Below, piece by piece: positions 2,712-63,378 of a stretch of 64,000 nucleotides of DNA. The position numbers were made by a program, and so were the translations under genes. This DNA comes from an uncultured Candidatus Saccharibacteria bacterium (lineage in GTDB: Bacteria > Patescibacteriota > Saccharimonadia > Saccharimonadales > JAGQNJ01), in NCBI GenBank assembly GCA_964510945.1, contig CAZEED010000001.1:98774-162773 (forward strand), in the 5' to 3' direction. The first letter of the stretch is position 1. Each line of letters starts with the position of its first letter. Under the pieces are notes generated by a model. It did no database searches, was not told the DNA's origin, and saw only the letters and a program-made list of their open reading frames with translations.

Positions 2712-3929
2712 ATGGATTTAGACATGAAACAGTTAGCGTTAGCCGTACGGACTATCGCAGAAGAGAAAAATTTGCCGGAAGAAACAGTTAAAGAAAGCGT
2801 AGAGCAAGCTTTAGCAGCAGCTTACAGACGAGATTATGGAGATCGTGAACAAGAAGTCCGAGTAACTATGAACCTTAATACAGGCGATATTGACGCTTAT
2901 GTCACTAAAGACGTCGTAGAAAAAGTTGAAGACGACAAAATTCAGATAAGTCTTCGCGATGCCAGTGTGATGAAGAAAGACGCTAAAGTAGGCGATCAGA
3001 TTGAAGTGCATCAAACAGTCGAAAGTTTTGGACGAGTAGCAGCCCAGACAGCAAAACAAGTAATTTTACAAAAACTTCGAGAAAGTGAACGCGAGATCAT
3101 CTTGGCCGAATACGAAGATAAAATCGGAACAGTAATCAATGGAATCGTGTCCCGAGTTGAAGGACGACTAGTGCGCGTTGACATTGGCAAGGCGCAAGGA
3201 ATAATGCCGGTTAGCGAACAGATTCAGGGCGAACACTACTATAGTGGTCAAAGGGTTAAAGTATACCTAAAAGACGTTGAGCGCGGGCTTCGAGGACCAC
3301 AGCTAATAGTGTCTAGAGGAAATACCGAGTTTATAGAATGGTTATTCCAAAACGAAGTGCCCGAGATGGAGAGTGGCGCTGTAGAAATCAAAAAGATTGC
3401 CCGTGAGGCTGGCGTCAGGACAAAACTTGCCGTTAATTCGACTGTACCTGGTGTTGATCCGGTAGGGACATTTGTTGGTGGACACGGCACCAGGGTAAAC
3501 GCGGTGATGAGCGAAGTTGGCGAACAAGAAAAAATCGATATTGTAGTCTGGGATGATGACGTTAAACAGTTCATAATCAATGCTTTGAGCCCAACAAAGG
3601 TTACTAAAGTAGAATTAGATGAAGCTACAAAAAAAGCAAAAGTTTTCGTACCGGAAGATCAACTATCAATTGCTATCGGTAAGAGTGGGCAGAACGTCAG
3701 GCTTGCGAGCAAACTCTCTGGCTATGAGCTAGATATTGAAGGTGATAAATCAAAGGTTGAAGAACCGACTTCTGCTGACGAGAATCCTGAAGTTACAGGA
3801 CCAGTACAAGCTAAGCCTGCGCATAAACCAGCAGAAACTGTTGATACTAAACCAAAAAAGTTAAAGAAGAAAAGTGAGCTAGAAAGTAGCCTGCTCGATG
3901 CTGTCGAAGAACACGGTACTGAAGAGTAA
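2712..3929 (+). CDS. nusA: Transcription termination/antitermination factor NusA
   Basis: ORF 2688-3929; N-terminal NusA domain, S1 then KH region (SIAIGKSGQNVRLASKLSGYELDI). Start placed at ATG 2712 behind GGAAGGA; ATG 2688 abuts the leader T-run. Confidence 0.9.
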   Translation: MDLDMKQLALAVRTIAEEKNLPEETVKESVEQALAAAYRRDYGDREQEVRVTMNLNTGDIDAYVTKDVVEKVEDDKIQISLRDASVMKKDAKVGDQIEVHQTVESFGRVAAQTAKQVILQKLRESEREIILAEYEDKIGTVINGIVSRVEGRLVRVDIGKAQGIMPVSEQIQGEHYYSGQRVKVYLKDVERGLRGPQLIVSRGNTEFIEWLFQNEVPEMESGAVEIKKIAREAGVRTKLAVNSTVPGVDPVGTFVGGHGTRVNAVMSEVGEQEKIDIVVWDDDVKQFIINALSPTKVTKVELDEATKKAKVFVPEDQLSIAIGKSGQNVRLASKLSGYELDIEGDKSKVEEPTSADENPEVTGPVQAKPAHKPAETVDTKPKKLKKKSELESSLLDAVEEHGTEE

Positions 3930-60780: not shown

Positions 60781-61437
60781 ATGTTAGAACTATTATTTGT
60801 TATAGGATTTGGAGTTATCGCTTATCGGAGCGCTACAATTCGAGACGAGGATTTATCACCACTTCCGCGAAAACTTAGCGACAAACTAGGTCAATTATGG
60901 GGCATAGCCCACCAAGGGATGAAAGATAATAGCCTAATTCGGGCAGAAAAAGCCTTATTGACTATCCTTAAAATTGATAAAAAGAACGCTGCTGCCTATA
61001 ACCGTCTAGGAATCTTGTATGCAAAACAAAAAGAATACAAAGACGCCATAGATTGTTTTGAAATTGCTTCGAGCATCGAAGTTAGCCCGTCTAGTTTGCA
61101 CAACCTAGGTTTGATTTATTACGAAACAGAAAATTATGAAAAAGCCGCGACTGCGTTTGAGCAAGCTTTAAAACTTGAAGATAATCTTGCGGCAAGACAC
61201 GTAGCATACGCAAAAGTCCAAGAAAAATTAGGCAATAATAAACTCATGTTTGCAGAGCTAGAAAAGGCCGTAGAATTAGAGCCTACAAAAGAATCATTAA
61301 AATATCTTCATCAGGCTTATGAAAATAACGATATGCACGAACAAGCAAAAAGTATTCGTCGAAGACTAGACCGCGCGACCGTATCAAAAACAAAACCAAA
61401 AAAGCTTATTCGTCCAAAACGCAGAGTTGTTATTTAA
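60781..61437 (+). CDS. TPR-repeat protein with N-terminal membrane helix
   Basis: Repeated A..YN.LG..Y....Y..A...FE.AL pattern, three to four repeats. Confidence 0.7.
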   Translation: MLELLFVIGFGVIAYRSATIRDEDLSPLPRKLSDKLGQLWGIAHQGMKDNSLIRAEKALLTILKIDKKNAAAYNRLGILYAKQKEYKDAIDCFEIASSIEVSPSSLHNLGLIYYETENYEKAATAFEQALKLEDNLAARHVAYAKVQEKLGNNKLMFAELEKAVELEPTKESLKYLHQAYENNDMHEQAKSIRRRLDRATVSKTKPKKLIRPKRRVVI

Positions 61438-61612
61438 CCCCTGTTCTGATAAAATTTACAGGTACTTTTCGCTGTTTTAACCTAGCTTTTCAACCTAACG
61501 ATTCGATTTATTCGGCTCGAGCGATTGAAAGGCTAAGAAAAAGAAGCGACTAGAGATTGAAGGCAAATATTCGTAGAATGTTAGCGGAAAGTCGACCGTC
61601 GGTTCTGACGAG

Positions 61613-61689
61613 CCGCCTTAGCTCAGTTGGTTAGAGCGACGGTTTTGTAAACCGTAGGTCGTCGGTTCGAATCCGACAGGCGGCTCCAA
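61613..61689 (+). tRNA. tRNA-Thr (anticodon TGT), CCA encoded
   Basis: GCCGCCT/AGGCGGC acceptor, anticodon loop TTTGTAA, T-loop TTCGAAT. Confidence 0.92.
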
Positions 61690-61724
61690 AAGAGACGTAT
61701 GCAACTTTATGTTACAGGCGGCTC

Positions 61725-61737
61725 CACAGAAAACTTC
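61725..61737 (+). repeat. Direct repeat of the tRNA-Thr 3' end (ACAGGCGGCTCCA), copy 2
   Basis: Identical 13-mer to 61677-61689. Confidence 0.85.
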
Positions 61738-61790
61738 TACTAGTTTACTGGAGAGAAGTTTTCGAGGAAGCAACTGCAGCCCGAAGGGCT

Positions 61791-61803
61791 ACAGGCGGCT
61801 CCA
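61791..61803 (+). repeat. Direct repeat of the tRNA-Thr 3' end (ACAGGCGGCTCCA), copy 3
   Basis: Identical 13-mer; preceded by hairpin AGCCC-GAA-GGGCT in a T-arm-like position. Confidence 0.85.
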
Positions 61804-61918
61804 TCCTTCGTCGCTGAAGCTATGAAGGATAAACATATAGAATGCCATGCGAGAGCATTCTAGAACATTTGAGGTGAGTTCAGAGAAGTGTTGACGACCC
61901 GAAACTCGGGTCGTTTAC

Positions 61919-62004
61919 GCAGGGTTAGTGAAGCGGTCAAACACGGCAGACTGTAAATCTGCTGGCTTATGCCTTCGTAGGTTCGAATCCTACACCCTGC
62001 ACCA
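61919..62004 (+). tRNA. tRNA-Tyr (anticodon GTA), long variable arm, CCA encoded
   Basis: GCAGGGT/ACCCTGC acceptor, anticodon loop CTGTAAA, variable arm, T-loop TTCGAAT. Confidence 0.9.
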
Positions 62005-62011
62005 ACTATAG

Positions 62012-62036
62012 AATCCCGCATTTGTGGGATTTTTTA
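62012..62036 (+). terminator. Intrinsic terminator after tRNA-Tyr
   Basis: AATCCC...GGGATT stem followed by TTTTT. Confidence 0.65.
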
Positions 62037-62143
62037 GTTGGTCCTGATTAATAAATTCGAACCGACAGGCGAGAACAGTCGGGGACTGTTTGAGTTATAA
62101 ATATTTATAGCGAGATGCTTTAGCTCTCGAGCGGATAAATCAA

Positions 62144-62166
62144 TTCGAGTCCTACACCCTGCACCA
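62144..62166 (+). repeat. Direct repeat of the tRNA-Tyr 3' end (TTCGAGTCCTACACCCTGCACCA)
   Basis: 22/23 identical to 61982-62004. Confidence 0.85.
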
Positions 62167-62220
62167 ATTCTGTAAAGTATTAAGGACGTCAGAACCGCGT
62201 CCTTTTGTTATAGTAGAGTC

Positions 62221-62379
62221 ATGAATTGTCCTAAATGCAACAAACCGATGCTCAAAGTTCGCTCAGAAATTACCAACAACCTCAAATCAGGTAAAGACTT
62301 TAAGGAGTACAATAAGTTCACATATGAATGTAAAACTGATGACATCTGGGTAACTACTGAGACTCCTGTATCAAAATAG
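62221..62379 (+). CDS. Possible 52-aa zinc-ribbon-like peptide
   Basis: Hand translation MNCPKCNKPMLKVRSEITNNLKSGKDFKEYNKFTYECKTDDIWVTTETPVSK; CPKC plus a single distal Cys only. Confidence 0.3.
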   Translation: MNCPKCNKPMLKVRSEITNNLKSGKDFKEYNKFTYECKTDDIWVTTETPVSK

Positions 62380-62429
62380 ATCGTTATAATTGCTCAAAAG
62401 TTGCTAGAACCATAGCAAAACATAGTAAG

Positions 62430-62795
62430 ATGAAGTATGTAATGGTTGTTTCAGAAGTTGTTATTCATCACAAAGCACGATTTAATGTTGCTGTGCCAAT
62501 TACAACTGACGTAACAGGTGAATGTCTAGATATTGTTCAGGCATATTCAGATTCAATTCCCTCATTGGGAATACCTACATTAGAACATGTGATTCCTGGA
62601 CTAGTAGAAGTAGCATTAGTATCGTGGGAAGAAGCTAGATATAGCAAGAAAGTAATAGATTCATGGGTAAAAATTGGCGCGGGTAGGATATCGTTATCTG
62701 AACTATTCTATTGCCAACCCATACCTCATGATCCAAAAATTACGTATAATAGGGATGAACACTTCAAGCAATTAGAACTAGGTTTGCCAACATAG
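62430..62795 (+). CDS. Hypothetical protein
   Basis: 121-aa ORF, no motif recognised. Confidence 0.4.
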   Translation: MKYVMVVSEVVIHHKARFNVAVPITTDVTGECLDIVQAYSDSIPSLGIPTLEHVIPGLVEVALVSWEEARYSKKVIDSWVKIGAGRISLSELFYCQPIPHDPKITYNRDEHFKQLELGLPT

Positions 62796-62859
62796 CCCCG
62801 CCTGTCTGGTCAGAGGTAAAACATCCATACATATCGATTTTAAGTGGTACAATCAATAC

Positions 62860-63060
62860 ATGGAAAGAATTTCGATCCAAAAAACACCAATTGAAACAAA
62901 GTCCGATGGAGATCACGATACTTTATGGCTCGTAGAACCTAGCGAACAAGCTATAGTGGCTTTCGAAAGAAGAGAAGCCGAGATAATCATGGCAGAAACA
63001 CCTGACCCAGTCTTTGATGCAGATCACTGCATTGGAAGCCTGGTGCTAATGCCGACATAG
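62860..63060 (+). CDS. Hypothetical small acidic protein (3' end overlaps tRNA-Thr by 10 nt)
   Basis: 66-aa ORF only. Confidence 0.25.
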   Translation: MERISIQKTPIETKSDGDHDTLWLVEPSEQAIVAFERREAEIIMAETPDPVFDADHCIGSLVLMPT

Positions 63061-63125
63061 CTCAGGGGTAGAGCGCATCCATGGTAAGGATGAGGTCCTG
63101 GGTTCAAATCCCAGTGTCGGCTCCA
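63051..63125 (+). tRNA. tRNA-Thr (anticodon GGT), CCA encoded
   Basis: GCCGACA/TGTCGGC acceptor, anticodon loop ATGGTAA, T-loop TTCAAAT. Confidence 0.92.
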
Positions 63126-63171
63126 AAATTTATACTTGAATATATCAATCTAATCTGTTAATCTATACTTC

Positions 63172-63378
63172 ATGGCTAAAAAAACAGGTAAACGAAAAAC
63201 TATTGGACTTGTGAGCGAACTCTCAGGTCATCGTCATTATTACACCAACAAGAATCAACAAAATACTCCGGACAAATTAAGCATCAAAAAATACGATCCA
63301 GTAGCCCGAAAACACGCACTTTATACAGAGACAAAGAAGAGTTTGGGCCGCAACGAAGTCAAACCTCGTAAAAAATAG
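63172..63378 (+). CDS. rpmG: 50S ribosomal protein L33 (Cys-less, C-terminal extension)
   Basis: KRKTIGLVSELSGHRHYYTNKNQQNTPDKLSIKKYDPVARKHALYTETK matches the L33 pattern. Confidence 0.85.
   Translation: MAKKTGKRKTIGLVSELSGHRHYYTNKNQQNTPDKLSIKKYDPVARKHALYTETKKSLGRNEVKPRKK

Follow-up and report, generated by a model that had tools for sequence, protein, structure and literature searches.

The 3' end of the tyrosine transfer RNA (tRNA) gene occurs twice near the end of a 64,000-nucleotide stretch from an uncultured Candidatus Saccharibacteria bacterium (contig CAZEED010000001.1, positions 98,774 to 162,773; hereafter the window), and the present analysis concerns the second copy together with the interval in front of it, here called the Tyr unit. 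With moderate confidence, I interpret the second copy as the tail of a structured non-coding module of ~115 nt (62054-62166) that ends in a tRNA 3' end and represents a diverged member of a large superfamily found in Saccharimonadales and in metagenomes. The superfamily is apparently undescribed, no account of such tRNA-tailed elements having been found in the literature searched; the module appears to be of duplicative origin, is similar in layout to the RtT repeats of Escherichia coli and falls loosely within that superfamily. Coordinates of all features are collected in Table 1.

The string TTCGAATCCTACACCCTGCACCA (61982-62004), which spans the T-loop, 3' T-stem, 3' acceptor strand, discriminator and CCA of tRNA-Tyr(gta), recurs as TTCGAGTCCTACACCCTGCACCA at 62144-62166 with 22 of 23 positions identical, or 23 of 24 if the next A is included. 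The copies lie on the same strand with a period of 162 bp, and the 23-mer had exactly two matches at ≤3 mismatches across the 64 kb and none in 100 shuffles, which bears out the duplication of the tRNA-Tyr end put forward in the original prediction. A functional second tRNA and a pseudo-tRNA at the copy were both ruled out, as ARAGORN and the Rfam tRNA model found neither in 62005-62230, and sequence inspection revealed no 5' acceptor strand, D-arm or anticodon arm before the copy at 62144. The Tyr unit is neither a second tRNA nor, as set out below, the edge of an island that exists today.

Synteny extends over both the interval and the copy in two sister species (L019 and L020), whose TPR proteins, encoded beside the tRNA cluster, are 95% and 89% identical to that of the window. 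Among these three sequences the 90-nt core of the Tyr unit is 87.8%, 81.1% and 80.0% identical and the adjacent TPR gene 77-80% identical at the nucleotide level, while identity drops to 43-56% in the trailer hairpin behind tRNA-Tyr and to 42-44% in the 60 nt beyond the Tyr copy, both flanks being unalignable. A core that keeps the identity level of a coding gene between flanks that cannot be aligned does not behave like a collapsed neutral insert, and this copy of the unit shows purifying conservation across the three species. The repeats had originally been taken for an attL/attR-like pair around such a collapsed insert. By the criterion proposed along with it, conservation half refutes that idea, as the core is syntenic in both sister species and the flanks are not; the pair was given up in view of this syntenic core, of the lack of any integrase seen and of a variable segment that the repeats do not bound (see below).

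In the consensus fold of the window, L019 and L020 sequences, an inverted T-loop box is base-paired to the T-loop copy, there are two internal hairpins, and a tail of ~13 nt ending in CCA stays unpaired. The 5' T-stem remnant is decayed in the window and intact in L019, where TCGTAGG (the 5' T-stem of tRNA-Tyr) precedes the box, and in L020 the decayed Tyr copy reads TTCGAATCCTACACCATACACCG. L019 additionally has a further, decayed Tyr unit just downstream, which is of the element-A type described below. The perfect hairpin reported earlier for the interval exists at 62074-62090 (AACAGTC-GGG-GACTGTT), with a loop of 3 nt rather than 4. Terminator-like hairpins had been reported behind both tRNA-Tyr ends; the second passes a terminator scan, whereas the first was not flagged by the scan and is terminator-like by eye only.

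Within the interval, TTCGAACCGACAGGCG at 62056-62071 had been labelled a tRNA-Thr fragment. The string is present and equals the T-loop, T-stem and acceptor sequence of tRNA-Thr(tgt) minus one base, but the label fits it less well. Reverse-complemented, its first 12 nt reproduce the 5' T-stem plus loop of tRNA-Thr exactly and those of tRNA-Tyr at 11 of 12 positions, and the same inverted box followed by CGAnAGG is also found in units behind tRNA-Gly (where the tail matches another tRNA), tRNA-Leu and tRNA-His. The CCGAnAGG(C)G behind the box therefore belongs to the element in those units, which weakens the reading as a tRNA-Thr fragment; TTCGAACCGACAGGCG more plausibly represents the module's inverted T-loop box together with a decayed T-stem, with a Thr origin as a further possibility. 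Compared with shuffles, the box stands out clearly from chance (z about 5.5), but its specificity against permuted partners is weak (z about 1.9); host-specific covariation was rejected on the latter ground, and the box is a generic TTGAA/TTCGAA box. In the B alignment of six sequences, the helix between box and T-loop had compensatory changes in 2 of 6 predicted pairs. The box was also considered as a -35 promoter element and dismissed, since its spacing to TATAAT-like sequences was inconsistent by eye and a promoter scan found no promoter in the unit.

The best-preserved form within the superfamily is a structured element of ~85 nt with three hairpins (84-88 nt in 29 clean cases), here called element A, which is embedded in truncated tRNA copies. 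A 21-nt pattern matched at least 120 metagenome stretches, at least 96 of them bona fide (L099-L218), and these were complemented by 7 Saccharimonadales loci. The 5' part of A reads (T)GAGAAnTGCC-NGT-GGCAnTTCGCAAGG and is followed by a long variable hairpin, CGGG, and a short hairpin with a mostly purine-rich loop of 4-5 nt; examples are L095 8740-8888(-), L058 7716-7870, L037 7809-7963, L019 12505-12655(-), L181, L198 and L212. RNAalifold on 27 distinct A units predicted 39 pairs, 24 of which had compensatory changes, with the T-stem closing a four-way junction. Among the matches listed, A always lay within tRNA-derived sequence and in the orientation of the tRNA, usually between T54 and T55 and sometimes in the D-arm, and it was preceded by GT in 101 of 103 cases. 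Rfam 15 held no family match for A or for the window units; a sub-threshold CsrC match in the A unit at L114 585-786 (23 bits, where the gathering score is 61) is probably due to nothing more than GGA-containing hairpins, and A was not assigned to any known RNA family.

Element A occurs in two layouts, which sometimes flank one and the same intact tRNA gene. In the first, the 5' part of a tRNA is followed by A, the rest of the T-loop, the box and an intact copy of the same tRNA; in the second, an intact tRNA and a terminator precede the box, a 5' T-stem, A, a 3' part with CCA and another terminator. A tRNA lies directly upstream of 17 of the 28 units with the second layout, and within these 17, A starts 71-88 nt past the tRNA end in 15 and the 16-nt tail is identical to the upstream tRNA in 13. 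The hosts of this layout cover about 10 isoacceptor types (Tyr, Val, Arg, Gln, Leu, Lys, Ser, Ile, Ala). As the tails match whichever tRNA adjoins, a fixed attP cannot explain them, and each tail would have to be a local copy, made through target duplication or gene conversion. A can occur twice in one pseudo-tRNA, and several copies may share a locus, being more alike within than between loci and including one tandem pair that is 99% identical. At L019 12620-12669(-), a tRNA-Trp-like 5' fragment with the anticodon loop CTA stands before A, and splicing it onto the following gene makes ARAGORN report a tRNA-Pyl(cta); because the fragment has several other changes, it is probably a decayed pseudogene.

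A covariance model of A together with its tRNA-derived flanks (R1) matched the window at 62029-62166 over its full length (22.4 bits, E=1.8e-5), aligning GAGAACAGTC-GGG-GACTGTTTG with the first hairpin of the element (P1) and CAGG with the 5' T-stem. R1 did not match the true tRNAs of the window; a weak match at 3131-3251 lies inside a 413-aa open reading frame (ORF) and was attributed to chance. Window-like units were also matched in L165 (behind tRNA-Gly) and in L190 (after a His-type tRNA 3' end), and profile and pairwise tests picked the same two units. The L165 unit (863-1011) stands behind tRNA-Gly(gcc) with a tail (GAGTCCCCTCACCCGCGCCA) from a different tRNA, so that units do not always match their upstream neighbour. 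The architecture of the A superfamily is present in the window too, namely the inverted box, the 5' T-stem remnant, a GAGAA-type hairpin, a tail from the adjacent tRNA and a terminator of its own. It is very improbable that the repeat arose without any element, by drift after the 3' region of tRNA-Tyr had been duplicated locally in tandem or through replication slippage: this would yield a same-strand direct repeat 162 bp away, and arrays of the E. coli type can grow by unequal crossing-over, but the interval is without similarity to the tRNA-Tyr body or trailer, matches an independent element model and is conserved instead of drifting, and in no relative was it seen to align with the tRNA body or spacer.

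Recurrence of such units was evaluated in a sample chosen by the TPR gene alone, comprising 80 species-level loci fetched via the TPR protein, 68 of which contain tRNAs. Extra copies of tRNA ends were found in 17 of these 68 loci (5' fragments only in 2 cases). The extra 3' copies followed Thr(tgt), Tyr, Thr(ggt) or Trp, mostly at a distance of 60-200 nt, and each matched the tRNA of its own species; 54 of the 55 same-strand 3' copies were downstream of a tRNA (315 tRNAs in all). In the common layout, a hairpin stands behind the tRNA, and a box resembling an inverted T-loop (GATTCGAAC or CTTGAAC), a 5' T-stem remnant and a structured element lead up to a T-loop-to-CCA copy and a terminator. 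A further design, here called C-type, was observed in L077 5536-5713, L095 9104-9227(-), L111, L132, L146, L162, L172 and L190, and consists of a GAACC..GGTTCG stem, a TAGCGA box, a hairpin with GAGCA and a GNRA-type hairpin before the tail; R1 does not match these units. Very short spacing was seen in L139 and L143 (tRNA-Gln), L145 and L182, with the tRNA-Gln end appearing again 34 nt downstream (..GCCAGGTAGTGAGTTCTCGAATCCCTCATCCCCAGCCA) without a structured element between.

The tyrT/tyrV locus of E. coli K-12 carries a 19-nt tRNA-Tyr end six times with a 178-bp period, four Rfam RtT matches and a small RNA, rttR, annotated over one unit, and rtT RNA still lacks a known function (bioRxiv 10.1101/2024.07.17.603846). 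The likeness to the window includes a tRNA-Tyr operon, units directly behind the tRNA that end in its own 3' end with CCA, a hairpin just before the copy, tandem arrays and a copy that starts inside the T-loop (19 nt against 23 nt in the window, at 178 against 162 bp). In contrast to E. coli, where one tRNA species is involved, units in Patescibacteria, a different phylum, occur at many tRNA species. The RtT model RF00391 gave no match at E≤1 in the window stretch searched, nor at E≤10 in 61600-62230 and in six unit-bearing Patescibacteria loci, while scoring 133-138 bits on the four E. coli units as a positive control; conversely, R1 does not match E. coli. Short motif resemblances between RtT and the Patescibacteria units, C-type included, were noted by eye (CTCGAGCG, AGCGAGA, GGTTCGA), and as MAFFT gave patchy motif matches only, no homology of the C-type units to RtT is claimed. 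Since neither model recognises the other group, the likeness to RtT is one of analogy and not of membership.

A structured RNA insert inside tRNA gene sequence also calls to mind tRNA introns and split tRNA genes. Group I introns typically exceed 200 nt, and archaeal non-canonical introns can occupy the T-loop. The tRNA introns described so far in Patescibacteria sit in the anticodon loop, with 35/36 as a new site (PMC13011429). Element A differs from introns in its length of ~85 nt, in its position between T54 and T55 or in the D-arm, and in that no complete tRNA was interrupted by A alone among the 135 pattern matches listed, a few of which are chance matches in coding DNA. Excision of every length from 55 to 259 nt at the 135 matches, followed by ARAGORN, rebuilt a tRNA only by splicing onto the next intact gene, and A was consequently rejected as a tRNA intron; Rfam gave no intron match for A or the window units.

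The companion repeats of the neighbouring tRNA-Thr were likewise confirmed, with ACAGGCGGCTCCA (the 13-nt tRNA-Thr end) present at 61676, 61714 and 61791, whereas three copies did not come up in any of 100 shuffles. Two different structures account for them. One is a 38-bp mini-insert that is present in the window and in the same-species contig L002 and missing in five species (L019, L020, L068, L086 and L024), which makes it a clean filled/empty case. The other is the Thr unit, which runs from a hairpin (GAAAACTTCT..AGAAGTTTTC) through CGAGGAAGCAACTG to a second hairpin (CAGCCC-GAA-GGGCT). It was found in all 7 species compared, with a covarying first hairpin and a nearly invariant 3' half, and its identity across three species is 77-88%.

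A core locus of Saccharimonadales (TM7) occupies the end of the window, with the gene order trpS, rluD-like, holB, TPR protein (60781-61437), tRNA-Thr(tgt), tRNA-Tyr(gta), three small orphan ORFs, tRNA-Thr(ggt), rpmG and a LysM transglycosylase. Same-species contigs were defined by an identical TPR protein (L001, L002 and L003). L001 and L003 match the window, whereas L002, at ~95% nucleotide identity, does so up to window position 62097. The segment that is variable between strains holds the right third of the Tyr unit, its tail and terminator and the three orphan ORFs; in L002 its place is taken by a 61-aa ORF and a PurF-like gene, and homology resumes 3 nt before tRNA-Thr(ggt). As this cassette begins inside the Tyr interval, the Tyr repeats do not delimit it. 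The earlier proposal that the orphan ORFs of the window may be leftovers of inserted elements found no support in Pfam and PHROG, where they had no match; the 66-aa ORF overlaps the start of tRNA-Thr(ggt) by 10 nt, and the 117-aa product was found in other assemblies only in the same locus context. Metagenome contigs L013 and L015-L018 start at the equivalent of window 62074-62091, just before the point where the window and L002 diverge (62097/98), and such independent assembly breaks are consistent with strain heterogeneity at the junction.

The Thr(tgt)-Tyr-Thr(ggt) cluster is conserved beside the TPR gene (L019-L098), and the gap from Tyr to Thr(ggt) ranges from 6 bp to 5.5 kb with unrelated cargo among 48 related species. 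The three tRNAs are spaced by 1-15 bp in L059, L070 and L088, most species having 0.1-5.5 kb of cargo between them, and the Tyr-Thr block is inverted in about 9 species. Cargo includes NUDIX proteins, kinases, PurF-like proteins, MscL, GH10, GT1, an MFS transporter, Ddl and similar proteins, with the PurF-like gene as a recurrent occupant of the gap (L002, L020, L035, L050, L078). The variable gaps, unrelated cargo and block inversions, together with the L002 cassette and the 38-bp Thr insert, support the earlier suggestion that this tRNA cluster is a recombination hotspot, and duplicative insertion does occur there. A look for integrases beside tRNA-Tyr in relatives had also been proposed as a check, but no integrase or recombinase was seen among the 74 cargo ORFs of ≥110 aa (gaps >400 bp, 48 related loci), where individual viewing covered just the leading families (in full for the top 25) and the 10 largest unassigned ORFs; there was likewise none in the window cassette, and no ORF at all within the 139-bp interval.

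These observations bear on the possibility that an integrase-borne island or prophage integrated into the T-loop of tRNA-Tyr and collapsed to 139 bp of neutral debris, which I consider unlikely. The part of the gene from T-loop to CCA is a canonical identity block of tRNA-targeting integrases. Partial tRNA genes often come from element integration (PMC9897764). Att-site remnants, including integrase-less cis-mobilisable elements (CIMEs), share several traits with the Tyr unit: the stretch of the tRNA that begins at the T-loop is directly repeated, and there are also an intact tRNA, an insertion-like structure and a hotspot of variable cargo, to which the 38-bp filled/empty polymorphism flanked by the 13-nt Thr repeat may be added. 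Nevertheless, this separate Thr mini-insert is the only case in which a repeat bounds a present/absent segment. Unlike att remnants, the insert of the tRNA-tailed units is ~140-190 bp long, structured and conserved, its tail follows the adjacent tRNA, and neither an integrase nor cargo bounded by the repeats accompanies it; units of similar size with locally matching tails at about 10 tRNA types are a misfit with an attP that carries one fixed segment. A phage attP carrying the Tyr 23-mer was also sought and not found, with 0 matches in IMG/VR contigs, and the element-A pattern gave 2 matches in viral sequences, both coding-looking and chance-like.

A less remote alternative, though still a doubtful one, is a purely selfish non-autonomous element, resembling a miniature inverted-repeat transposable element (MITE) or an intron, that inserts into tRNA T-loops and D-arms, survives only where a partial tRNA copy is redundant, and of which the Tyr unit would be a dead copy serving no purpose for the host. 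The nearly constant GT before A, the use of two tRNA sites, the occasional double occurrence in one pseudo-tRNA, the multiple copies per locus, the two layouts around intact tRNAs and the loss of the Tyr unit in L002 all agree with such an element. Against it stand the syntenic orthologues, which are 80-88% identical where the flanks are randomised and are unexpected for a dead insertion, as well as the uniform module length, the invariable orientation and the lack of a complete tRNA interrupted by A alone. Moreover, no transposase, reverse transcriptase or nuclease recurred near A among the listed loci, where the most frequent protein family did not exceed 5 of 96 and housekeeping genes make up the surroundings.

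Several observations weigh against the favoured interpretation of a conserved tRNA-tailed module. The right third of the Tyr unit and its tail are missing in L002, a member of the same species, and the tail is decayed in L020, which indicates that the unit is dispensable. The units that join a tRNA 5' part to A, and the D-arm insertions, look more like a selfish insertion element than like a host gene. Only three orthologous Tyr-unit sequences were available for the fold, with 1 compensatory pair. Finally, a second covariance model, R2, which comprises the 86-position core of A (P1-P2-P3) alone, missed the window unit with default filters; with filters off it matched P1 alone at 62072-62092 (9.1 bits, E=0.046 in 1.8 kb, a weak match), and the Thr unit at 61729-61792 was matched, also weakly, over P1 and P3 with 10.1 bits. 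These were the two best filter-off R2 matches in 61400-63200. Homology to A therefore rests on the flank-including model and on architecture, and since R2 was not significant on the window, the window units are called probable diverged or miniature relatives of A and not confirmed members.

Table 1. Features at the tRNA-Thr/tRNA-Tyr locus, in window coordinates
Feature	Position	Strand	Basis or remark
tRNA-Thr(tgt), opens the conserved Thr-Tyr-Thr cluster	61612-61688	+	ARAGORN; Rfam tRNA 76 bits
38-bp mini-insert, 25 nt + ACAGGCGGCTCCA	61689-61726	+	Alignment; placement ambiguous by the 13-nt repeat
Thr unit, 64-nt structured element + 13-nt tRNA-Thr tail	61727-61803	+	Seven-species alignment
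tRNA-Tyr(gta), last 23 nt = first repeat copy	61919-62004	+	ARAGORN; Rfam tRNA 62.7 bits
Trailer hairpin and T-run (ATCCC 62013-17 / GGGAT 62026-30, then T6)	62012-62036	+	By eye; wholly different in sister species
Tyr unit core	62054-62143	+	80-88% identical in L019/L020; consensus fold; R1 match
Inverted T-loop box AATTCGAACC	62054-62063	+	Part of Tyr unit core
Decayed 5' T-stem remnant GACAGGC	62064-62070	+	Part of Tyr unit core
P1-like hairpin GAGAACAGTC-GGG-GACTGTTTG	62072-62092	+	Part of Tyr unit core
Hairpin CGAGATGC-TTTA-GCTCTCG	62111-62129	+	Part of Tyr unit core, which also holds GAGCGGATAAATCAA
Tyr unit tail, T-loop-to-CCA copy of tRNA-Tyr (22/23)	62144-62166	+	Perfect in L019, decayed in L020, missing in L002
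Intrinsic-terminator-like hairpin after Tyr unit	62182-62204	+	Terminator scan
Strain-variable segment relative to L002	62098-63047	.	blastn breakpoints 62097/98 and 63047/48
Orphan ORF, 52 aa, CxxC motif	62221-62379		Within strain-variable cassette
Orphan ORF, 121/117 aa	62430-62795		Within strain-variable cassette
Orphan ORF, 66 aa	62860-63060		Within strain-variable cassette
tRNA-Thr(ggt), right anchor of the variable gap	63051-63125	+	ARAGORN

As for how such modules could arise, the tail may derive from the adjacent tRNA gene through a duplicative recombination event with the T-loop at its centre, and unequal recombination or gene conversion between tail and tRNA could then multiply, delete and homogenise units, giving rise to tandem arrays. 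The unit would be transcribed in the orientation of the tRNA, with the tRNA-like tail and the terminator setting its 3' end as in E. coli rtT RNA. On a broader and more tentative level, the window units and element A might together form a new class of small structured RNA/DNA elements (core ~85 nt, module ~180 nt) that reside in the T-loop or D-arm of tRNA sequences in Patescibacteria and carry a single-stranded tail identical to the local 3' end. Such elements could be mobile and target tRNA genes, duplicating the 3' third of the tRNA, or could act as tRNA-mimicking regulatory, guide or ribozyme RNAs, with RtT as a distant analogue.

Whichever of these applies, the units have practical consequences, as they break metagenome assemblies (several contigs end at 62074-62091) and leave fragments of tRNA ends that can pass for island att sites or pseudo-tRNAs. 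If the elements are selfish, they would constitute a new tRNA-specific insertion element without a linked enzyme. If the module is functional, the tRNA operons of reduced genomes of the Saccharibacteria type would routinely encode extra structured RNAs whose 3' ends mimic the neighbouring tRNA. This would offer a handle on the long-unexplained rtT/RtT repeats of E. coli, and possibly on tRNA 3'-end maturation or on enzymes that target tRNA ends in organisms whose RNA-processing machinery is minimal.

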